DNA from: Bacteroidia bacterium
GTDB lineage: Bacteria; Bacteroidota; Bacteroidia; UBA4408
Assembly (NCBI GenBank): GCA_020845635.1
Contig: JADLFI010000026.1
Location: forward strand, 3,329 to 67,328
Direction: 5' to 3'
Length of the DNA: 64,000 bases
Shown here one piece after another: positions 7,460 through 17,041 of this stretch; within the stretch, counting starts at the first letter, position 1; every line of letters begins with the position of its first letter. A program made the translations under genes and the position numbers. Below the pieces are notes generated by a model that had not been told where the DNA came from, did no database searches, and saw only the letters and a program-made list of their open reading frames with translations.

Positions 7460-9793
7460 CTAAACTCGGATGCCTACAACCGTTACATCATCTACTTGTT
7501 CAAGGTTTCCTTTCCAGTTTTCAAAAACATCATTTAATTTTTGATTTTGAGCTGACATTGGTTCATGAGCTATTGACAACAATAATTCTTGTAATTGATT
7601 ATACTTAAATTTTTTTCCACGCTCTCCGCCAAATTGGTCAGCAAAACCATCGGTAAGTGCATAAACAACATCTCCTTTTTGTAAGTCAAATGTATGAAGC
7701 GTAAACGGTTCCTTATCTCTGTCATGTTTACCAACCGGGAACCGGTCGCCTTTTATTTCAATTAATTTATTCTCTCTAATAATCCAAACGGGATTATTAG
7801 CCGATGAGCAACTTAAATTATTATTTTTTAAATCAAAACTTAATAAACTTCCATCCATGCCGTCTTTACCTCCTTCGGCACTTCCATCTTTTTTAAGTGT
7901 TTCTATAATTTTAGTTCGTGTATGGTTTAATATTTCATTTGGCAGAGATAACTTTTCTACCTCTACTGATTTTTCGAGGTATGCAATATTCAAGATGCTC
8001 ATAATGGCGCCCGGGACACCGTGTCCCGTACTATCAGCAATACATAATAAAAAATTACTTTGGGTTGCTGAGCCTGTTGAAGCAGCCCAGTAAAAATCTC
8101 CACTTACAACATCTTTTGGTTTGAACATTATAAAATAATCGCTTAAATTTTCATCTAACAATTTCTTACTAGCGAGTAAAGCTCTCTGAATCCGTTCTGC
8201 GTAATTGATAGAATCGGTAATTTCCTTATGTTTTTTTTCAATCAAATGCTTTTGTTCTTTTATTTCTAAAGTTGCCTCATTCACTTTAACTTTTAATTCA
8301 ACTGCTCGCGCTCGTAATCTTCTTCCATTCCACCATACAATTAAAAAAATCATAGAAATTGCAAACAAGGTATATAATGAATAAGCCCACCACGTTTTCC
8401 ACCAAGGTGGGCGAATGGTAAATTTATATTCATAAGGCGCACTCCAAAAACCCTCGCTATTCATGGCTTTTACTTTAAAGGTATAAGAGCCGTGAGGCAA
8501 ATTGCCATAGGATGCAAATGATTTGTTGGTAATAACACTCCAGTTTTCGTCAATACCTTCTAACATGTATTGGTACTTTACATTTTTTGGTTGGTTCATG
8601 GTTATACCAATAAAGTTGAAGGTGAGGTAGTTATTATTATACGCCAAACTTAAATTCTCAGGTAAAGAATACCATTTAGTTAGGCCATCAAAATTAAAAT
8701 CACTAACGCTTACGCCATTGCCTAGAGTAAGTGTACTATCTTTTTTGTTTTCTAAATTATTCCAAGCAATATTTTCGTTAAACAACTCAATAGTAGTTAA
8801 TTGTATATTGGGAGCAATGGAGTCGGGTAGCATATTCTCAGGGTGCATTGCTGTGAGTCTATCTTTTGCTCCTATCCATATAGTACCATCTTTAGCTTGT
8901 AACATGGTTTTACCGGCATTTACACCTATACCTAAAAAACCTTCTGCGTAGGTGTAATTTTTAAAAATAATATCTTGTTTGGTTAAGGTATTTGACTTGA
9001 TTTTGTCATTAATTTCAATTGATTTTGATGGTGTTAACTTACTAATCCCAAAGCGGGTGCCGAACCAAAGGTTTCCGCTTTGGTCTTCTAACAGCGAGAA
9101 AACAGTAATGTTGGCAAGCCCTTCTTTATCGCTAAAAGTAGTAAAGGATTTCCCATCATACTTACTTACTCCGCCAAATGTGCCGAACCAAAGGTTTCCG
9201 CTTTGGTCTTCTAATATACTCAAAACAGCATTGTTTGCAAGGCCTTCTTTATCGCTAAAAGTAGTAAAGGATTTCCCATCATACTTACTTACTCCGCCAT
9301 CTGTGCCGAACCAAAGGTTTCCGGATTTGTCTTGCAGCATACATCTTATAGTGCCTTGTTTTAAACCTTGTAGTTTACCATAAGTGCTAAAGTTTTGGGG
9401 GTTTTGGTCTTTGTTAGCCATATCTTTAGCTATAACAGTTTCGGGTATGCCGGCAACAAAAGGACTATCGATGGCAGGTACTGTTTTTGGGAGCAGAAAA
9501 GTATCTTGCCCGGGGGTGCAAATGCGTGGTGTGCCTGCTAATACAATTTTTGGGATGCCTACAGGATGCACATTTAAATTAGTAGGTACAATTTTGGGCT
9601 TGCCAACGGGAATCTTTTCGAGCTTGCTTTCATCAACAAAAACAACTTTTGGTTCAGCCATGCTGTCTTTGGGTACTACATAGCCTTTGGTTACTACCAC
9701 CTTAGGAGTAATAATTTGCTGTTGTTTGTTTTCTTGCTTGTTGTTGCAAGAAAATAATAGTAAGAGAAAAACTATTGAAAAGTAATATTTCAC
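7460..9793 (-). CDS. Membrane-anchored sensor serine phosphatase: periplasmic two-component-regulator propeller (Reg_prop) repeats + Y_Y_Y domain + TM helix + coiled coil + SpoIIE/PP2C phosphatase domain
   Basis: It has a lipoprotein-type signal (MKYYFSIVFLLLLFSC). The GNLWFGTxxGVSKYDGKSFTTF motif repeats, as in Reg_prop blades. YTFKVKAMNSEGFWSAP is Y_Y_Y-like. WWAYSLYTLFAISMIFLIVWW is a TM segment. The C-terminal GDFYW…ADSTGHGVPGA…DGMDG…TDGFADQFGG matches PP2C/SpoIIE metal-binding motifs. Confidence 0.75.
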   Translation of the reverse strand: MKYYFSIVFLLLLFSCNNKQENKQQQIITPKVVVTKGYVVPKDSMAEPKVVFVDESKLEKIPVGKPKIVPTNLNVHPVGIPKIVLAGTPRICTPGQDTFLLPKTVPAIDSPFVAGIPETVIAKDMANKDQNPQNFSTYGKLQGLKQGTIRCMLQDKSGNLWFGTDGGVSKYDGKSFTTFSDKEGLANNAVLSILEDQSGNLWFGTFGGVSKYDGKSFTTFSDKEGLANITVFSLLEDQSGNLWFGTRFGISKLTPSKSIEINDKIKSNTLTKQDIIFKNYTYAEGFLGIGVNAGKTMLQAKDGTIWIGAKDRLTAMHPENMLPDSIAPNIQLTTIELFNENIAWNNLENKKDSTLTLGNGVSVSDFNFDGLTKWYSLPENLSLAYNNNYLTFNFIGITMNQPKNVKYQYMLEGIDENWSVITNKSFASYGNLPHGSYTFKVKAMNSEGFWSAPYEYKFTIRPPWWKTWWAYSLYTLFAISMIFLIVWWNGRRLRARAVELKVKVNEATLEIKEQKHLIEKKHKEITDSINYAERIQRALLASKKLLDENLSDYFIMFKPKDVVSGDFYWAASTGSATQSNFLLCIADSTGHGVPGAIMSILNIAYLEKSVEVEKLSLPNEILNHTRTKIIETLKKDGSAEGGKDGMDGSLLSFDLKNNNLSCSSANNPVWIIRENKLIEIKGDRFPVGKHDRDKEPFTLHTFDLQKGDVVYALTDGFADQFGGERGKKFKYNQLQELLLSIAHEPMSAQNQKLNDVFENWKGNLEQVDDVTVVGIRV
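9057..9340. repeat. Tandem direct repeat with a 123-bp unit (~2.3 copies, near-identical) inside the propeller-repeat coding region
   Basis: The unit gtgccgaaccaaaggtttccgctttggtcttctaa…gctaaaagtagtaaaggatttcccatcatacttacttactccgcca starts at 9057, 9180 and 9303. Copies 1 and 2 differ at only a handful of positions. The repeat encodes 41-aa propeller blades (EDQSGNLWFGT.GGVSKYDGKSFTTFSDKEGLAN..V.S.L). Confidence 0.9.
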
Positions 9794-10548: not shown

Positions 10549-11133
10549 ATGGAACTGGTTTTTGCCACCCACAATTTGAATAAAGTTATTGAGGTTCAGG
10601 ACATGCTTACTTCGGGAATACAGTTAATAGGTCTTGATCAGTTGGGATTTAATGAAGATATTGCAGAAAACGGGTTGGATTTAAAATCCAATGCTCAAAT
10701 AAAGGCCACTCACATTTATGGTCTTTTCGGGAAAAATTGTTTTGCCGATGATACGGGACTTGAAGTTGATGCCCTGAATGGATTGCCTGGAGTGTATAGT
10801 GCACGTTTTGCGGGAGAACAAAAAAGTGATACCGATAATATCAAATTCCTGCTTGAAAAAATGAAAAGTAAAAGCAACCGCAGAGCTCAGTTTCGGGCCG
10901 TTATTTGTTTGGTATATAAAGGCGATACCATATTTTTTGAAGGAGCCATTGAGGGCGAAATTACCCATGAACCTATTGGTAATGATGGCTTTGGGTACGA
11001 TTCTGTATTTAAACCTAAAGGTTTTGATATAACTTTTGCCCAGATGGACTCTTATCTAAAAAATCAAATCAGTCATCGCTATATTGCCTTCAAAAAATTA
11101 GTAACCTATTTAAATGGGTTAAAAGTTATTTAA
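10549..11133 (+). CDS. rdgB: Non-canonical purine NTP pyrophosphatase (dITP/XTP pyrophosphatase, RdgB/HAM1 family)
   Basis: MELVFATHNLNKVIEV…FADDTGLEVDALNGLPGVYSARF…AQFRAV… shows the canonical Ham1 motifs. The 194-aa length fits the family. Confidence 0.85.
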   Translation: MELVFATHNLNKVIEVQDMLTSGIQLIGLDQLGFNEDIAENGLDLKSNAQIKATHIYGLFGKNCFADDTGLEVDALNGLPGVYSARFAGEQKSDTDNIKFLLEKMKSKSNRRAQFRAVICLVYKGDTIFFEGAIEGEITHEPIGNDGFGYDSVFKPKGFDITFAQMDSYLKNQISHRYIAFKKLVTYLNGLKVI

Positions 11134-11223: not shown

Positions 11224-13950
11224 ATGAAATTAAAGATAGGAATTGTGTTTGGCGGTTTCTCGCGCGAACGCGAAGTATCTTTTGCCGGAGGCAGAACTGT
11301 GTATGATAATCTGAATAAATCGCTCTTTGAAGCAATTCCATTGTTTGTTGACAGTTTTGGAAATTTTATTCAACTTAATTGGGAGTATATTTACAAAGGA
11401 AGTATTCGTGATTTTTACCCGCCTGTATCGTTTATTAGCAATAGTCCCAATCATTATCAGGTTTATGCCGAAAGTTTGATAAAATCTACCGACAAGCAAG
11501 CTGAGAAAATGGCTGAAGGGATTGGGAAAACAATTCCACCCGATAAGTTAATAAACTTAATAGATTTTGCTTTTTTGTGTCTGCACGGCCCTTATGGTGA
11601 AGATGGAACTATACAGGGGTTGTTTGATTATTACGGAATCCCGTATTCCGGCTCCGGAATTTTCCCTTCATCGGTAGGCATTAATAAAATTATACAAAAG
11701 CAACTGATGGCTGAGGCAGGGTTTAATGGCCCTACTTATACCACCATCAGTAAAGAAGAATGGACAAAAAACAATCGCCCCGAAATATTTCATCGTGTTG
11801 CACAGAAAGTTAAATTCCCCTTAGTCATAAAAGCTCCAACACAAGGCTCCTCTATAGGTATAAGTATTCTAAAGAATAGTGATTATGATGGATTTTGTAA
11901 GGCTGTCAATAAGAGTTTTTTCAGAATTGAATTGGAGGCTGAACAATGGAAACACAAAGAGATGTCTCAGAGAGTAGAAGAAGTAAGACAGTGGAGCGAT
12001 ATTAGGGAAGGTATAGGTATGCCTGTACTATTGTCCGGCTTTATGAATAATGAACTAACAGAAGAGAAAATAATTCTACATCCTGAAGATTTATTGAACG
12101 AGTTAAACAATATTTTGAACCATAACACGCTTGCAGTTATTGAAGCGCTTGATGGCGAGCATGAAGTACTTATCGAAGAATTCATTGAAGGCCGTGAGTT
12201 TTCTTGTATTGTGGTTGAGCATTATCAGGATAATAAGCAACAGTTAATTGCACTGCCGCCCACCGAAATAAGAAAAGGACAAGATTTATTTGATTATAGA
12301 TGTAAATATTTGCCGGGTTTAGCACGTAAAATTACACCTATTAACTTACCTTTAGAACAGATAAATGAAATAAGCCACCATTGTAAGAAACTCTTTAAAA
12401 CTCTACGTTTTGACGTATATGCCCGCATTGACGGTTTTATAAACAATTCAGGCAATATATTTTTAAATGATCCCAACACTACTTCGGGCATGATGCCCTC
12501 TTCCTTTTTCTTTCATCAGGCGGCTGAGATTGGTTTAAATCCATCTCAATTTCTCACCTTTATAATCTCTACTTCATTAAAGAAAAGAAGCTTGTCCAAT
12601 AAAAATCAGGATAGAATCATGAAACAATATCTTGATTTATTGAAAAATATTAGACAACAACACAGCCACTCTAACGATAAAATAAAGGTTGCCGTTGTAA
12701 TGGGTGGATACAGTAGTGAAAGACATATCTCAGTGGAGAGTGGTAGAAATATTTATGAAAAACTTTTTTCGTCCGAAAAATATTTACCTATTCCAATATT
12801 CTTAACAGGTAACAGCAACGAGCATATATTATATACCTTACCGGTAAATATTTTGTTGAAGGACAATGCCGATGATATTAAAGAAAAAGTAATCCATTAT
12901 CAAGAACATCCATTTATTACTGCTCTTAAAGAAGAAGCAAGGCCACTGACACGACTCTTTACCGGTGATTTGGAAGTAAAGAAGCCTGAAAAAATACAGT
13001 ACACCTCACTTAAGAACATGGCCGATATTGTGTTTATAGCCCTACATGGTCGCCCGGGTGAAGATGGAGCAGTACAACAAAAATTAGATGAGTTAGGAAT
13101 ACCGTACAACGGTAGTGGGGTACAAAGTTCGCAAACAACCATAAATAAATATCTAACTAATAATATTTTACATCAATCGGGCTTACACACAGCTAAACAC
13201 CTAATGGTTAATGAAACAGAATGGAATCTTCAAAAAGAAAGTGTAATAGATAATATTGAGAAAAACATTGGGTATCCGCTTATAGCTAAACCTGTTGACG
13301 ATGGTTGCAGCAGTGCCGTAAAAAAGATTAAAAATCGAAACGAGTTAGAAGCCTTTGCATTGTTAATTTTTAGAAACGATTTATGCTTGAACGAATCGGC
13401 AGCAGAGAAATTGAAATTAAAAATCAATGAAGAGTTTCCACAAAAAAAAGAGTTTCTAATTGAAGAATTGATAAGTGCAAAAGGAGCAGCCCACTTCATA
13501 GAAATTACAGGAGGCTTGTTAACTCATTATAACGAAAATAAGGAGATAGAATACGAAATTTTTGAGGCTAGCGAGACTTTGGCCGAAGGAGAAGTGCTTT
13601 CGCTTGAAGAGAAATTTTTGGCAGGGCAGGGGCAAAACATTACTCCGGCACGCTATGCCCTAAATAATGAAGATGCCAAAAAAATATCTGCTTTAGTAAA
13701 AAAAGATTTTCTAAAGGCAGCTTTAGCTTTAAATATTGAGGGTTATGCTCGTATTGACGCATTTGTAAGGGTTTACAGTCCCGAAAAAGTAGAAGTTATA
13801 TTCATTGAGGTTAACTCATTGCCCGGAATGACTCCGGCTACGTGCATTTTCCATCAAACTGCCATTAACGGGTATATGCCTTATGAGTTTATAGATAAAA
13901 TATTAGAGTTTGGATTTGAAAGAATTTCATTGAAAAAAGCACTTCTCTAA
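11224..13950 (+). CDS. ddl: Tandem-duplicated D-alanine--D-alanine ligase-like ATP-grasp protein (two complete Ddl-like modules fused in one 908-aa polypeptide)
   Basis: Module 1 (aa ~1-450): KIGIVFGGFSREREVSFAGG…LHGPYGEDGTIQGLFDYYGIPYSGSG…PLVIKAPTQGSSIGISI…EEFIEGREFSC…ARIDGFI…LNDPNTTSGMM. Module 2 (aa ~480-908): KVAVVMGGYSSERHISVESG…LHGRPGEDGAVQQKLDELGIPYNGSG…PLIAKPVDDGCSSAV…ARIDAFV…IEVNSLPGMT. Both halves carry the Ddl N-domain, central ATP-grasp motif and C-terminal motif. Both also have a ~50-60 aa insertion at the same position. Confidence 0.75.
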   Translation: MKLKIGIVFGGFSREREVSFAGGRTVYDNLNKSLFEAIPLFVDSFGNFIQLNWEYIYKGSIRDFYPPVSFISNSPNHYQVYAESLIKSTDKQAEKMAEGIGKTIPPDKLINLIDFAFLCLHGPYGEDGTIQGLFDYYGIPYSGSGIFPSSVGINKIIQKQLMAEAGFNGPTYTTISKEEWTKNNRPEIFHRVAQKVKFPLVIKAPTQGSSIGISILKNSDYDGFCKAVNKSFFRIELEAEQWKHKEMSQRVEEVRQWSDIREGIGMPVLLSGFMNNELTEEKIILHPEDLLNELNNILNHNTLAVIEALDGEHEVLIEEFIEGREFSCIVVEHYQDNKQQLIALPPTEIRKGQDLFDYRCKYLPGLARKITPINLPLEQINEISHHCKKLFKTLRFDVYARIDGFINNSGNIFLNDPNTTSGMMPSSFFFHQAAEIGLNPSQFLTFIISTSLKKRSLSNKNQDRIMKQYLDLLKNIRQQHSHSNDKIKVAVVMGGYSSERHISVESGRNIYEKLFSSEKYLPIPIFLTGNSNEHILYTLPVNILLKDNADDIKEKVIHYQEHPFITALKEEARPLTRLFTGDLEVKKPEKIQYTSLKNMADIVFIALHGRPGEDGAVQQKLDELGIPYNGSGVQSSQTTINKYLTNNILHQSGLHTAKHLMVNETEWNLQKESVIDNIEKNIGYPLIAKPVDDGCSSAVKKIKNRNELEAFALLIFRNDLCLNESAAEKLKLKINEEFPQKKEFLIEELISAKGAAHFIEITGGLLTHYNENKEIEYEIFEASETLAEGEVLSLEEKFLAGQGQNITPARYALNNEDAKKISALVKKDFLKAALALNIEGYARIDAFVRVYSPEKVEVIFIEVNSLPGMTPATCIFHQTAINGYMPYEFIDKILEFGFERISLKKALL

Positions 13951-13995: not shown

Positions 13996-14811
13996 ATGAA
14001 TGCATCAAAAAAGAAAATAGTTAAACATGTTGCAATTATTGCAGTTATATATGTTATAAGTATATGGGGCATTTTGTTATGGTTAAAAGACTTTACACAA
14101 CACGGAATAAAAGTAAAAGTGCCTGATGTTTCCGGATTAAAGCCTCAACAAGTTAAAGAACTGAGCAATAAATACGATTTAAAATTTATGATTGTTGATT
14201 CAGTTTATTCTTCTGATAAAGAGAGAGGAACCGTGATTGACCAAAATCCGTCCCCCGGTTCGGAAGTTAAACAAAACAGAAAAGTATATTTAACCATAAA
14301 TTCTTTCCATCCTCCAACTATAAAAATGCCCAAGTTGATTGACCTTTCATATAGACAGGCAAAATCTATCCTAGAAACGTATGGTCTGGTGCCGGGTAAC
14401 ATTATTTATGAACCCGATTATGCAAAAGATGCAGTATTAAAGCAATTATACAAAGGTAGGGAACTAAAACCCGGAGACCCTGTAGTGTTGGAATCTAAAA
14501 TTGATTTGGTTTTAGGTGATGGCCTCAAAGGCGAAAAAATTGATTTACCTTATTTAATAGGCTCAAAAAGAAACGAAGCACTCAATATATTAAAACAAAA
14601 CTCGTTAACAATAGGGGCCGAAGTATTTGATAAATCAGTTAACGATACTACCGCTGCTATTGTTTACAGGCAATTTCCTACTTATTACAACAATGCTCAG
14701 GTAAGTAAGGGTCGTAGTGTTGATTTATTTTTTACCCAAGATGCAAGTAAAATAAAACAGGCTCAAGATTCGGTAAAATTGCGAGAGATTAATGATGAAA
14801 ATAATGAATAA
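13996..14811 (+). CDS. PASTA-domain protein (N-terminal TM anchor plus three PASTA repeats)
   Basis: TM helix VAIIAVIYVISIWGILLWL. The PASTA-like repeats are VKVPDVSGLKPQQVKELSNKYDL…GTVIDQNPSPGSEV, KMPKLIDLSYRQAKSILETYGL…, and IDLPYLIGSKRNEALNILKQNSL…. The ddl-PASTA arrangement is a conserved Bacteroidota synteny. Confidence 0.7.
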   Translation: MNASKKKIVKHVAIIAVIYVISIWGILLWLKDFTQHGIKVKVPDVSGLKPQQVKELSNKYDLKFMIVDSVYSSDKERGTVIDQNPSPGSEVKQNRKVYLTINSFHPPTIKMPKLIDLSYRQAKSILETYGLVPGNIIYEPDYAKDAVLKQLYKGRELKPGDPVVLESKIDLVLGDGLKGEKIDLPYLIGSKRNEALNILKQNSLTIGAEVFDKSVNDTTAAIVYRQFPTYYNNAQVSKGRSVDLFFTQDASKIKQAQDSVKLREINDENNE

Positions 14812-17041
14812 CAATAAATACTACTACACTTTTTTAATCTTTATTACTTTCTTGTTTCTATATGTCAATAGTTATGGACAGGAATATATTACTCCCTTAA
14901 AAACCAATGCCATTTTAACTCAGCAAAATGCTGAAAACAAGGCTAGGAGAGATGCAGATAATAATAATCAATTTTGGATATTTCAGCCCATAACCAATTT
15001 ACCTTTTCAGGACGATTTTAGCCGAATAAAAAGCACCAATTATAATCCTGATGCCTATCCGGCTTCAGCTAAGTCTGATACGGTGTGGCATAGTTGCCGT
15101 ATTAACGGGTTGCTACCGGCTCAATCGCCAATGTATTTTATGAAAGATACATCATATACTTTTCATTACAATAGCGTTAATAATGAAGTCACAAAAACTC
15201 CTAATACCCCATACACTTTAACTTTTTTCGAAAATAAAATTAGCCCTAATACTATTACATCTAGCAAACAGTTTTGGCCTGTATATGATAGTATTAGCTT
15301 TAATACTACCACTCAACTTCCCGATACTTTTTTTATACCTTATGATACTTTAATTAATTACACCTCCGATACATTGCATTACATTAAAGTACAGGCCGGA
15401 TTAGCCAATTGGAAAAACAGTAATGTGTTTTGGAATAATACCTACCCGGTAAATCCTCCAAGTATTGGCGTGGTAACTTTCGATGGAATTGACTCAACAG
15501 GGCTGCCCTATAATTTTGGGGTACAAACGGCTTACGGTAAGGCCGACAGGTTAAACTCAGTGCCTTTTAACTTATCAAATCTATCGCCTACTAACGATAG
15601 TGTCTATTTTAGTTTCTTTTACCAAAGTACAGGATTGGGAAATGCCCCTGAACCTGAAGATTCACTGACTTTGGAATTTAAGACAGCCAACGGAGAGTGG
15701 TTACGTATGTGGGGAACAGCCGGATACAATATTGGTCTTGACAGTGCTTTTAAAAGAAAAATGATACCTATTCAAGACAGCATTTTTTTTCATAAAGATT
15801 TTGAATTTAGATTTACCAATTATGCCACCCTTAGCGGAAATCTTGATCATTGGCATATTGACTACGTGCGCATTGACTTGCATAATGATACCATTATAAA
15901 AGATATTACATGGATATATCCGGGAAAGTCGTTGTTTAGCCAATATCAGCAAATACCTCGAAAACAATATACCGGAAATCAAGCTGACTTTTTTAAGAAC
16001 TATGTCAGAAATTTATTTAATCAACCCATTAATGTTACCTATGCTTTAAGGGTAAAAGATTACTTTGACAATACTTTATTTTCAGTAAATGTAAATAATG
16101 TTGATTTTGCTCCTAATATAATAAACAGTTGCAATTTTTGTAATGAAATTCTCAACCCACTTTACGGAGGTAATTTCTCTTTTCCTATCACCTCTTTGTG
16201 TGCCCGGTATGAGGTTAAAGGCATTATACAAAATATAGCTTCTGAACCCAACCTCAATAACGACACTTTGTATTACACTCAAATATTTGGTGATTGTTTT
16301 GCTTATGATGATGGTAGTGCCGAAGCTGCCTACGGTATTAATTCGCCCTATGCACAAATGGCTGTTAAGTTTAATGCCGTTAATAGTGATACTTTACGTG
16401 CCATTAGAATTTATTTTAATCCTGTGGTGGTTAATTCAGCCGAAATGAATCAGTTTACCCTTGTAGTATGGGAAGTGGACGCTAACGGGAAGCCAGGAGC
16501 AGAACTATATCGGAAAAACGCACCGGATGCTCCACAGTATGTCGGTCAGTTAAACGGATTTGTTGATTATGTTTTAGACACCCCAATAACTATTTCAGGT
16601 AATTTCTTTATTGGAATAGAACAAATAGGTGCCACCGAGCTGAATGTAGGGTTAGACCGAAATACCAATGCTATGCTTATGCAATATTATCAGGCCAACG
16701 GTACTTGGTTTCAAACGCAGTTTGTTGGGTCTTGGATGATGCGCCCTGTATTTGGAGCCTGTCAGGATTTCTTAAGTTCTACTGCGAGTATTACCGATAA
16801 TCCGGAAATTGTTCTTTATCCTAATCCTACCAATGGTTTGGTAAATATTGAATTCAATCAAGATGCAACTTATAGGGTTGAAGTTTATAATATAATGGGT
16901 GAATTGGTAAAGACTCAAACTATAAATAATAATATGACTGCTATTGATTTGAGCAGTTTCAGTGCAGGGGTTTATGGGGTTAAAATTCAAAATCAAAACT
17001 CGGGCAATATCAGCTTCCAAAAAATTCAATTGTCCAAGTAG
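14792..17041 (+). CDS. Secreted protein of unknown function with a T9SS C-terminal sorting domain
   Basis: Signal peptide YYYTFLIFITFLFLYVNSYGQ. The C-terminus IVLYPNPTNGLVNIEFNQDATYRVEVYNIMGELVKTQTINNNMTAIDLSSFSAGVYGVKIQ is a typical Por_Secre_tail. It overlaps the PASTA gene by 20 bp, so the two are probably co-transcribed. Confidence 0.65.
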   Translation: MMKIMNNNKYYYTFLIFITFLFLYVNSYGQEYITPLKTNAILTQQNAENKARRDADNNNQFWIFQPITNLPFQDDFSRIKSTNYNPDAYPASAKSDTVWHSCRINGLLPAQSPMYFMKDTSYTFHYNSVNNEVTKTPNTPYTLTFFENKISPNTITSSKQFWPVYDSISFNTTTQLPDTFFIPYDTLINYTSDTLHYIKVQAGLANWKNSNVFWNNTYPVNPPSIGVVTFDGIDSTGLPYNFGVQTAYGKADRLNSVPFNLSNLSPTNDSVYFSFFYQSTGLGNAPEPEDSLTLEFKTANGEWLRMWGTAGYNIGLDSAFKRKMIPIQDSIFFHKDFEFRFTNYATLSGNLDHWHIDYVRIDLHNDTIIKDITWIYPGKSLFSQYQQIPRKQYTGNQADFFKNYVRNLFNQPINVTYALRVKDYFDNTLFSVNVNNVDFAPNIINSCNFCNEILNPLYGGNFSFPITSLCARYEVKGIIQNIASEPNLNNDTLYYTQIFGDCFAYDDGSAEAAYGINSPYAQMAVKFNAVNSDTLRAIRIYFNPVVVNSAEMNQFTLVVWEVDANGKPGAELYRKNAPDAPQYVGQLNGFVDYVLDTPITISGNFFIGIEQIGATELNVGLDRNTNAMLMQYYQANGTWFQTQFVGSWMMRPVFGACQDFLSSTASITDNPEIVLYPNPTNGLVNIEFNQDATYRVEVYNIMGELVKTQTINNNMTAIDLSSFSAGVYGVKIQNQNSGNISFQKIQLSK

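Follow-up and report, generated by a model that had tools for sequence, protein, structure and literature searches.

A tandem D-Ala-D-Ala ligase of two different modules encoded beside a PASTA gene in Bacteroidota

Two ligase modules in one reading frame

A single reading frame in the 64,000-nucleotide stretch of Bacteroidia DNA analysed here (the window) encodes two D-Ala-D-Ala ligase (Ddl) modules joined by a linker, and the gene for a PASTA-domain membrane protein starts 45 nt downstream of it (Table 1). The 908-aa product contains two copies each of the Pfam domains Dala_Dala_lig_N (PF01820) and Dala_Dala_lig_C (PF07478). Both domains were also matched when module 1 (4.7e-36 and 2.8e-25) and module 2 (5.3e-24 and 5.4e-23) were searched by themselves; the bit scores for PF01820 and PF07478, 89.6 and 124.7 in module 1 and 82.2 and 85.3 in module 2, all exceed the gathering cutoffs (34.6 and 24, respectively). 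All the motifs quoted in an earlier note on this DNA are present, namely GGFSRER, LHGPYGEDGTIQ..PYSGSG and ARIDGF..NDPNTTSG in module 1, and GGYSSERH, LHGRPGEDGAVQ..PYNGSG and ARIDAF..EVNSLPG in module 2. The proposal made there, that two full Ddl modules are fused, is thus borne out, and it is confirmed that the gene encodes two complete, different Ddl modules in one protein.

Table 1. Features of the tandem Ddl locus (window coordinates; aa, residues of the tandem protein unless a protein length is given).
Feature	Position	Strand	Remarks
Tandem Ddl ORF	11224..13950	+	908 aa plus stop codon, ATG start; from the ORF list
Module 1, 'type 1' Ddl, aa 1-439	11224..12540	+	hhalign vs E. coli DdlB, probability 100%
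Module 1 N-domain insertion vs DdlB, aa 36-103	11329..11532	+	59 extra residues
Module 1 central-domain insertion, aa 224-310	11893..12153	+	77 extra residues; holds conserved DIREGIG-P motif
Module 1 omega-loop, aa 352-372	12277..12339	+	..FDYRCKYLPG..; carries K361/Y362 (= K215/Y216)
Inter-module linker, aa 440-485	12541..12678	+	two long helices predicted
Module 2, 'type 2' Ddl, aa 486-908	12679..13947	+	hhalign vs DdlB, probability 99.9%
Module 2 N-domain insertion, aa 518-586	12775..12981	+	62 extra residues
Module 2 omega-loop, aa 786-811	13579..13656	+	EGEVLSLEEKFLAGQGQNITPARY
Downstream PASTA-domain membrane protein, 271 aa	13996..14811	+	N-terminal TM helix plus PASTA repeats; Pfam PASTA 2.1e-30

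With the NCBIfam model TIGR01205 the whole tandem protein scored 378.9 bits against a curated cutoff of 245.65. Scored singly, the halves fell below this cutoff (module 1, 218.5; module 2, 166.3), and both modules are therefore divergent Ddls. The halves are just 25% identical to each other (BLASTP, E 3e-35), so the duplication is old, as had been supposed from their divergence. The possibility that one half belongs to an unrelated ATP-grasp family, raised at the same time, did not materialise: profile searches assigned neither half to another family, and the PDB sequence matches of the protein were exclusively Ddl, VanA or VanG.

An AF2 model of the 908-aa chain had a pLDDT of 83 and a pTM of 0.85 and matched Ddl structures with target TM-scores of 0.75-0.86. 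No solved tandem Ddl occurred among the structure matches, the maximum query TM-score being 0.33. In the model the linker forms helices at residues 440-458 and 462-485 (DSSP); it is weakly conserved, with 13% near-invariant columns.

Insertions relative to DdlB are present in both modules. A shared insertion of about 50-60 aa at the same place had been described, and this holds for the N-domain but not for the central domain, where the insertions are unequal (77 aa in module 1 and 22 aa, residues 722-743, in module 2). The N-domain insertion of module 1 is for the most part accounted for by the longer N-domain that DdlA-type enzymes have, and these resemble the tandem modules in N-domain length (Salmonella DdlA, 3i12, alignment 2-219 vs 3-201); that of module 2 is kept in Patescibacteria (59 aa). 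The 77-aa central insertion is specific to Bacteroidota and is missing from module 1 of Patescibacteria. It is modelled as a small alpha/beta sub-domain (block pLDDT about 84-93), and no other part of module 1 is conserved so little (11% near-invariant columns).

Catalytic residues and substrate pockets

Residues are numbered as in E. coli DdlB, to which the module families were aligned by hhalign, with the protein's own numbers in brackets. Module 1 has E15, H63 (H121), K97 (K155), K144 (K203), S150 (S209), E180 (E318), K215 (K361), Y216 (Y362), R255 (R401), D257 (D403) and N272 (N418), and in it E270 is replaced by D416. Of the specificity positions, S281 (S427) is kept and L282 is F428. These residues are invariant in 86/86 Bacteroidota sequences except for K203 (K in 82, R in 4), and the signature is found also in 139 tandem proteins of Patescibacteria. 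The active-site triad E15-S150-Y216, a hydrogen-bond triad of enzymes that form dipeptides and the textbook determinant of vancomycin-resistance chemistry, is present in module 1 as E15, S209 and Y362 in an invariant state.

Module 2 keeps the catalytic set E499, H608, K642, K689, E747, K797, R843, D845, E862, N864 and G868. Its substitutions are S150 to C695, Y216 to F798, S281 to T873 and L282 to C874, so that only E499 of the triad is kept and the other two residues differ, again invariantly. The core catalytic residues and the Cys/Phe/Thr signature are the same in 86/86 Bacteroidota sequences, position 282 varying among small residues (Cys/Val/Ala). The signature recurs in the 139 Patescibacteria proteins and in stand-alone proteins of Cardinium and Amoebophilus.

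The residues for ATP, Mg and the transition state (K97, K144, E180, K215, R255, D257, E270, N272 and G276) are thus kept in both modules, as the alignment with DdlB proposed in the earlier note makes clear, and the sole systematic change among them is E270D of module 1, which is conservative and invariant and leaves N272 in place. From the sequence LNDPNTT, divergence had been located in the Mg site of module 1. The main pocket changes lie instead in module 2. The new point is the predicted substrate pocket of module 2, altered yet conserved, with changes that, by alignment, fall at positions known to govern whether a dipeptide or a depsipeptide is formed, or D-Ser specificity. Type 1 and type 2 are separately conserved paralogues across Bacteroidota and Patescibacteria.

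The two modules are about equally conserved (34% and 39% near-invariant columns). In module 1 the omega-loop has 62% near-invariant columns, and that of module 2 is conserved better than any other segment of the protein (77% near-invariant columns, 93% mean identity); its LSLEEKF motif is common to Patescibacteria tandem proteins at 32-34% overall identity. Both omega-loops have a pLDDT below 50 in the apo AF2 model, as expected if they act as mobile lids.

Distribution, stand-alone forms and genetic partners

The two-module architecture was found in the best 120/120 database matches (893-951 aa) and in genomes of cultured isolates; the ORF is thus genuine and not an assembly artefact. Hundreds of protein clusters show it, their members coming from Cytophagales (Hymenobacter, Rhodocytophaga, Flexithrix), Saprospiraceae and uncultured Bacteroidia, and Patescibacteria carry a version of ~800 aa. 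NCBI and JGI annotate tandem proteins as Ddl. The 100%-identical representative (P0001) has no name, and a member of the 90%-identity cluster (P0398, MCC6252032.1) is named 'D-alanine--D-alanine ligase [Bacteroidia bacterium]'. The fused double Ddl is therefore the usual form in large clades, where it is routinely annotated, and not peculiar to the source genome; this caveat had been attached to the claim of novelty and it applies. In plants, too, DDL has been reported as two fused DDL genes, and this form runs through the plant lineage (PMC9954125). Many tandem Ddls are mislabelled 'UDP-N-acetylmuramate--alanine ligase' by JGI.

A natural split form is known from locus L056, where a module-1 gene, a 139-nt spacer in place of the linker, a module-2 gene and a PASTA gene follow one another. 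A stand-alone type-1 gene adjoins ftsZ, and stand-alone type-2 genes with intact active sites comprise all the Cardinium matches listed and that of Amoebophilus. Cardinium and Amoebophilus make peptidoglycan, and the Cardinium pathway table shows no other ddl (PMC3486910). Each module type is, to judge from such genes, competent alone.

These data bear on the idea that the dipeptide is made by one module only, the other being a pseudo-enzyme with a regulatory or structural part to play. In its favour, Ddl normally acts as a dimer, which an inactive partner might help to stabilise (PMC6899670); the canonical triad is missing from module 2, and Glu270 is Asp in module 1. Moreover, in a divergent subgroup of Ddl-Ddl-PASTA fusions the catalytic residues are lost in both modules, and therefore the scaffold can be retained for a non-catalytic role and has a value beyond catalysis. 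However, in the 86 and 139 sequences the ATP, Mg and catalytic residues are invariant in both modules, the modules are equally conserved with both omega-loops as their best-conserved segments, and each type is found in reduced genomes by itself, its gene intact. A pseudo-enzyme is thus improbable. Of the asymmetric pair suggested earlier, the systematic difference between the halves stands, and a regulatory half is disfavoured.

The PASTA protein is genetically coupled to the tandem Ddl. Their adjacency, for which a conserved locus had been claimed correctly, is kept in 32/50 related genome loci; the tandem Ddl is fused to PASTA in P0123, P0124 and P0126, intact fusions occur, and in Amoebophilus the stand-alone module-2 gene still lies beside a PASTA gene. 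The PASTA protein matches the PknB_PASTA_kin profile only at positions 329-561 of 563, which are the TM and sensor part. Links to the Mur pathway were also found. A Ddl-Ddl-MurF fusion (P0263; TIGR01143, 323 bits vs cutoff 288.6) is encoded in a gene cluster that includes MurL, a Mur ligase and a Mur-ligase/alanine-racemase fusion, and a second tandem Ddl adjoins a Mur-ligase/alanine-racemase fusion. The split genes, the fusions with PASTA or MurF and the stand-alone module-2 genes tie the protein to peptidoglycan precursor synthesis, and the same set would argue that both modules are active enzymes.

It is, by the same token, highly improbable that the protein is not a cell-wall enzyme but a pair of ATP-grasp ligases for a secondary-metabolite peptide or a signalling D-amino-acid dipeptide. 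Such a role could be read into the TIGR01205 scores of the single halves and into the occurrence of relatives with extra domains such as GNAT. On the other hand, the best profile and structure matches are solely Ddl/Van ligases, relatives are fused to MurF or lie beside Mur ligases and alanine racemase, the linkage to a PASTA protein of the peptidoglycan-sensing type is tight, and no biosynthetic cluster genes were seen around the tandem Ddl among the larger flanking ORFs of the window scanned with Pfam.

Proposed function and comparison with known systems

The best reading, at a probability of roughly 55%, is that the protein is the lineage's housekeeping peptidoglycan Ddl in the form of a heterotypic pseudo-dimer held together covalently. 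Two ancient paralogues that are not identical, type 1 and type 2, would be joined by the helical linker and would pack against each other like the subunits of the Ddl homodimer. Both active sites probably turn over, supplying the D-Ala-D-X unit that MurF adds to UDP-MurNAc-tripeptide. Module 1, with its canonical triad, would be a standard D-Ala-D-Ala ligase. Module 2 (Cys150/Phe216/Thr281/Cys282) may make mainly D-Ala-D-Ala in vivo with altered kinetics or a relaxed second-substrate site, by analogy with DdlA/DdlB isozyme pairs or with the Y216F mutant that gains depsipeptide activity. The enzyme would work at the membrane with the downstream PASTA protein. Against this reading stand the two missing triad residues of module 2, whose product may not be D-Ala-D-Ala, the replacement of the Mg ligand Glu270 by Asp in module 1, and the divergent subgroup that lacks catalytic residues.

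Ddl enzymes recurrently form dimers (PMC6899670). The pTM of the two-module chain implies, within the limits of a predicted structure, a defined mutual orientation, and of the interface positions G77 and G81 (B. pseudomallei Ddl numbering), G77 is conserved in both modules and G81 in module 1. We infer from the split two-gene form, the pTM and the partly conserved interface that the modules associate as a heteromer. Canonical Ddl (E. coli DdlB, 2DLN/1IOV; Salmonella, 3I12) has the same three-domain ATP-grasp fold as each module and the same ATP, Mg and catalytic residues, the triad being shared by module 1. In contrast to the tandem protein, with two non-identical modules in one chain, it is a homodimer of ~306-370-aa subunits; module 1 differs from it by E270D, L282F and the 77-aa insertion, and module 2 by S150C, Y216F, S281T and L282C.

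DdlB Y216F still makes D-Ala-D-Ala. Park, Lin & Walsh reportedly found in 1996 that Y216F, S150A and E15Q of DdlB gain depsipeptide activity, and Healy et al. are said to have found in 1998 that D-Ser selectivity in VanC2 is controlled by position 282. In Phe-type Ddl of vancomycin-resistant lactic acid bacteria (Leuconostoc LmDdl2, 1EHI) and in DdlB Y216F (1IOW), both among the fold matches of the AF2 model, Phe occupies the Tyr216 position as in module 2. Unlike these, module 2 has an additional Cys at Ser150 and Thr/Cys at 281/282, and unlike the Phe-type enzymes of lactic acid bacteria it belongs to Gram-negative bacteria and Patescibacteria, and a Tyr-type module is in every case its partner, present or ancestral. 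Natural D-Ala-D-Lac ligases are marked by Phe at this position, the residue there switches dipeptide to depsipeptide synthesis, and the Leuconostoc enzyme was converted by F261Y (PMC5996685). A non-Tyr residue (Phe or His), as expected of D-Ala-D-Lac ligases of the VanA/B/D or Phe type, is found only in module 2 (F798, invariant).

A division of labour, in which module 1 makes D-Ala-D-Ala and module 2 is dedicated to another D-Ala-D-X, can thus be put forward as a tentative alternative. X might be D-lactate or another hydroxy acid, or D-Ser or another D-amino acid, and one polypeptide would give two kinds of peptidoglycan precursor termini. Y216F, S150C, S281T and L282C/V are exactly at specificity-determining positions and are invariant in both phyla; the module-2 omega-loop is conserved so strongly as to suggest a specific substrate lid; Phe versus Tyr decides depsipeptide versus dipeptide activity in lactic acid bacteria (PMC5996685); and the match to 1IOW points the same way. 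However, neither module reaches any D-Ala-D-Lac or D-Ala-D-Ser NCBIfam cutoff: module 2 scored 99.1 vs 550 bits with NF000206 (D_ala_D_lac) and 76.4 vs 775 with VanA, and modules 1 and 2 scored 155 and 111 bits with the D-Ala-D-Ser family VanG (cutoff 495). The Arg282 of D-Ser ligases (VanC/E/G/L/N) is absent, being Phe in module 1 and the small Cys/Val/Ala in module 2. A Pfam scan of the 10 larger ORFs that flank the locus (window 1.4-9.8 kb and 17-25.6 kb) turned up no vanH-, vanX- or D-lactate-dehydrogenase-like gene, and the activity retained by DdlB Y216F also counts against a dedicated module. Since Cardinium and Amoebophilus, apparently with type 2 only, make peptidoglycan with a standard MurF, type 2 would most simply make D-Ala-D-Ala.

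Plant plastid DDL (At-DDL; Physcomitrium PpDDL, BAE45860; OsDDL, BAF22630), compared here by its published description, resembles the tandem protein in having two complete Ddl units in one polypeptide and differs in being eukaryotic and nuclear-encoded, with a transit peptide. Moss Ddl is closest to Fibrobacteres-Chlorobi-Bacteroidetes (FCB) homologues, and a moss ddl knock-out gives a peptidoglycan-loss macrochloroplast phenotype (PMC9434261). It has been asked whether the fused plant DDL has a functional ligase in either half, and in which (PMC9954125), a question on which the tandem Ddl bears through the C-terminal-type module that occurs alone, active site intact, in Cardinium and Amoebophilus. 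The chlamydial bifunctional MurC/Ddl (NF011171; 188 bits vs cutoff 1015 for the tandem protein) and MurF/alanine racemase (NF008897) are likewise covalent fusions of peptidoglycan-precursor enzymes, but these join different pathway steps and the tandem Ddl joins two paralogous copies of one enzyme type.

Ddl is essential, and the antibiotic D-cycloserine targets it. Across much of Bacteroidota, and in Patescibacteria, it comes as a conserved pair of different active sites, one Tyr-type and the other Cys/Phe-type, and substrate profiling of the modules might bring to light overlooked variation in the peptidoglycan precursor termini of these poorly studied groups. If both modules simply make D-Ala-D-Ala, the protein is just a housekeeping enzyme in an ordinary fused variant. 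It is rather unlikely that type 2 (Cys150/Phe216/Thr281) is a ligase of distinct specificity from Patescibacteria to Bacteroidota, and possibly plastids, yielding two D-Ala-D-X termini with a PASTA-gated or PASTA-positioned output; were this so, termini such as a depsipeptide or a non-alanine D-amino acid would exist alongside D-Ala-D-Ala, and a PASTA-coupled metabolic enzyme would have a ligase where PASTA kinases have their kinase. The recurrent Ddl-PASTA linkage and fusion suggests that wall sensing in the periplasm and precursor synthesis in the cytoplasm are connected in a way not so far described. The downstream protein shares with PASTA kinases (PknB/Stk1) only the TM plus PASTA sensor part and has no kinase domain, and in Ddl-Ddl-PASTA fusions the tandem Ddl holds the cytoplasmic position of the PknB kinase domain.

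Domain content and active sites of the tandem Ddl

The earlier note had described two complete D-Ala-D-Ala-ligase (Ddl) modules in one ORF, and Pfam searches agree with this description. Two Dala_Dala_lig_N and two Dala_Dala_lig_C domains were found in the 908-aa protein, either half alone matched both Ddl domains with scores well above gathering, and every motif quoted in that note is present. With NCBIfam TIGR01205 (curated Ddl cutoff 245.65 bits) the full-length protein scored 378.9 bits and the halves, scored singly, 218.5 and 166.3 bits, below the cutoff. Both halves were far under every cutoff of the VanA-, VanC- and VanG-type NCBIfam models. A PDB sequence search with each half retrieved Ddl/Van ligases only. 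The possibility that one half comes from a different ATP-grasp family was ruled out, as other ATP-grasp Pfam models stayed below their gathering cutoffs with the halves scored singly and neither half was assigned elsewhere. ATP-grasp_4 matched the whole protein only (41.9 bits; cutoff 27), far more weakly than the Ddl domains. Its domains and catalytic residues make the protein a member of the Ddl family. The two halves are 25% identical, and the same two module types occur in another phylum; a recent duplication, already doubted from the sequence, is thus ruled out. Hundreds of independent full-length homologues exclude an assembly or frame-fusion artefact.

Residues were numbered after the E. 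coli DdlB sequence identical to PDB 2DLN/1IOV. Because the central region of module 2 was misplaced when both halves and DdlB were aligned jointly with MAFFT, a family alignment of 86 sequences was built for each module separately and matched to DdlB by hhalign (probability 100% for module 1 and 99.9% for module 2). E15, H63, K97, K144, S151, E180, K215, R255, D257, N272 and G276 are present in both modules and invariant in 86 of 86 sequences, except for a K/R swap at K144 in 4 module-1 sequences. Near-invariant columns make up 34% of module 1 and 39% of module 2, which we treat as equal conservation, and the most conserved segment of the whole protein is the module-2 omega-loop (EGEVLSLEEKFLAGQGQNITPARY). 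In module 2 the Ser and Tyr of the E15-S150-Y216 triad are lost. Each module is a divergent Ddl. That one module serves as a non-catalytic partner is considered unlikely.

Compared with DdlB, the N-domain of each module is lengthened by an insertion at one and the same site (59 aa in module 1, 62 aa in module 2), much of which is accounted for by the longer N-domain of DdlA-type enzymes. The central insertion measures 77 aa in module 1 and just 22 aa in module 2. The linker between the modules (~46 aa) is poorly conserved, with two predicted helices.

An AlphaFold2 model from a 53-sequence alignment had a pLDDT of 83, falling below 50 only at both omega-loops and one short loop. Its pTM of 0.85 in a two-module chain implies that the mutual orientation of the modules is confidently fixed in the prediction. 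In Foldseek searches each module matched Ddl, VanA, VanG and LmDdl2 structures (target TM-score 0.75-0.86), and no PDB chain spanned both modules (query TM-score at most 0.33). A dimer recurs among Ddl structures (PMC6899670). Among the dimer-interface equivalents (B. pseudomallei Ddl numbering), G77 and G81 are conserved in module 1 and G77 in module 2. The tandem protein would work as a covalent form of the Ddl dimer.

Tandem ddl gene, its modules and neighbours in the window, with stand-alone type-2 proteins and two loci of related genomes
Feature	Location or protein	Strand	Description
Reg_prop protein gene	7460-9793	-	777 aa; Reg_prop beta-propeller repeats, Y_Y_Y, C-terminal SpoIIE/PP2C phosphatase domain
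Ham1/RdgB-type non-canonical NTP pyrophosphatase gene	10549-11133	+	90 nt 5' of tandem ddl
Tandem ddl	11224-13950	+	ATG-initiated single ORF, 908 aa
Module 1 (type 1)	aa 1-439		canonical S150, Y216; changes E270D, L282F
Module 2 (type 2)	aa 486-908		changes S150C, Y216F, S281T, L282C
PASTA gene	13996-14811	+	membrane protein
T9SS-sorted protein gene	14792-17041	+	749 aa; T9SS C-terminal sorting domain; starts 20 nt before PASTA-gene end
Stand-alone type 2, Cardinium	P0419-P0423, P0449, P0456, P0461, P0483, P0490, P0492
Stand-alone type 2, Amoebophilaceae	P0495, P0503, L061 7719-9997
Locus L059	485-9939		one cluster: MurL (UDP-MurNAc-L-Ala-L-Glu epimerase type), Mur ligase, P0263, Mur-ligase/alanine-racemase fusion
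Locus L060	344-5708		tandem Ddl adjoining Mur-ligase/alanine-racemase fusion and MR_MLE-family epimerase

Distribution and gene arrangements of the two module types

The best 120 matches among 5.8 billion proteins all have the tandem architecture (893-951 aa) and, where named, are called D-alanine--D-alanine ligase; the 90%-identity cluster of the window protein includes MCC6252032.1, 'D-alanine--D-alanine ligase [Bacteroidia bacterium]'. In species-representative genomes the tandem gene was found in many cultured Hymenobacter, Rhodocytophaga aerolata, Flexithrix dorotheae, Saprospiraceae, Microscillaceae and other Bacteroidota. An exhaustive search of representatives gave about 45 clusters (50% identity) of tandem proteins of 860-930 aa, down to ~40% identity. 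As the earlier note had cautioned, the fused form is common and routinely annotated. The name 'UDP-N-acetylmuramate--alanine ligase', given by JGI/IMG to many tandem Ddls among the best matches, is a systematic mis-annotation, presumably transferred from the chlamydial MurC-Ddl fusion, which the tandem protein and its relatives resemble as a Mur-pathway fusion.

The same search revealed a distinct tandem group of ~790-825 aa with 32-34% identity to the window protein. Its members come from Patescibacteria (Peregrinibacteria, Kaiserbacteria, Taylorbacteria and others) and are named 'hypothetical protein' by NCBI. In 139 Patescibacteria sequences the module signatures exactly match those of the window protein, with S150, Y216, D270, S281 and F282 in module 1 and C150, F216, E270, T281 and V282 in module 2. 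This recurrence shows that the two module types are ancient paralogues conserved separately, the pair predating either phylum-level clade. A 987-aa GNAT acetyltransferase-Ddl-Ddl fusion (P0258) was seen among the Patescibacteria-type proteins.

The two modules also occur as separate genes. At two related loci (L056 and L057) a 477-aa type-1 gene is followed by a 139-nt spacer containing stop codons, then by a type-2 gene of 425 aa that starts at an ATG of its own, and then by the PASTA gene; both split genes retain their type signatures. A third candidate, L058, was dropped, as its module 2 lies in three pieces on a long-read contig and likely reflects frameshift errors. Three proteins (P0123, P0124, P0126; 1244-1285 aa) are Ddl-Ddl-PASTA fusions with intact active sites, and P0263 is a Ddl-Ddl-MurF fusion (323 bits with TIGR01143, cutoff 288.6). 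The genetic coupling between type 1, type 2 and PASTA is seen in every possible gene arrangement, and relatives are coupled to MurF. The gene sets of L059 and L060 form a compact stem-peptide toolkit. The single-module ddl of other Bacteroidota presumably also lies beside a PASTA gene.

A divergent set of Ddl-Ddl-PASTA proteins of 1094-1236 aa was also observed (P0167, P0171, P0172, P0178, P0183, P0184, P0195, P0225 and P0231, the last being Haliscomenobacter MBK7477711.1). This Saprospiraceae/Haliscomenobacter subgroup is 27-37% identical to the window protein, and most catalytic residues are gone from both modules; its members look like pseudo-enzymes tethered to a PASTA sensor. NCBI calls one of them merely 'PASTA domain-containing protein'.

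A stand-alone type-1 gene adjoins ftsZ on a compact contig, and the stand-alone type-1 genes P0216 and P0229 lie on short contigs. Every Cardinium strain among the matches listed, and Amoebophilus too, has a stand-alone type 2 that retains the full set of catalytic residues plus the C/F/T signature. At the Amoebophilus locus the PASTA gene is still 3' of type 2, and a type-1 remnant is absent. These reduced-genome endosymbionts 'are able to generate peptidoglycan'; a published table of the pathway in Cardinium contains murA-G, mraY and PBPs, without ddl (PMC3486910). The type-2 protein, annotated 'Putative uncharacterized protein' in Cardinium cEper1, probably fills this gap; type 2 alone appears to serve Cardinium and Amoebophilus.

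Proposed products of the two active sites

The tandem protein would be the lineage's D-Ala-D-X ligase supplying MurF, with both active sites working and the modules pairing as Ddl subunits do. No second stand-alone ddl was found within the 64-kb window, nor within 6 kb on either side at 50 related loci. Module 1 seems to be a standard D-Ala-D-Ala ligase. The Y216F variant of DdlB still makes dipeptide, and position 282 is reportedly a specificity site, as described by Healy et al. in 1998. Module 2 shares one pocket residue with the Phe-type Ddl of LAB, and a Phe at the Tyr216 site separates natural depsipeptide from dipeptide ligases (PMC5996685). A module 2 dedicated to an alternative product, the main rival explanation, is given about one chance in four.

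Ranked first is the reading that both sites would make mainly D-Ala-D-Ala, module 2 with altered kinetics or relaxed specificity. It is preferred because Cardinium and Amoebophilus, whose MurF is ordinary, appear to manage with type 2 alone, because no D-Lac/D-Ser ligase profile cutoff was approached, because DdlB Y216F keeps dipeptide synthesis, and because no van-type accessory genes lie near the locus (Pfam on the 10 larger flanking ORFs, window 1.4-9.8 and 17-25.6 kb).

In a literature search a bacterial tandem Ddl was nowhere described, the plant fusion alone being reported (PMC9954125); the window protein and the plant tandem DDL have a similar architecture. Since this architecture is widespread and regularly annotated, and has been reported for plants, the protein is not of a new kind. 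What appears to be undescribed so far is the conserved heterotypic pair of active sites across phyla, the PASTA linkage and PASTA fusions of tandem Ddl, and the stand-alone type-2 enzyme of endosymbionts.

Neighbouring genes in the window

Among 50 related loci, 28 keep the gene for a T9SS-sorted protein 3' of PASTA. The Ham1 gene, on the same strand as tandem ddl, is probably functionally unlinked, since this adjacency is kept in only 10 of the 50. Upstream of the Ham1-ddl-PASTA row lies the divergent Reg_prop gene, the product of which has, by its domains, a sensor-phosphatase architecture.
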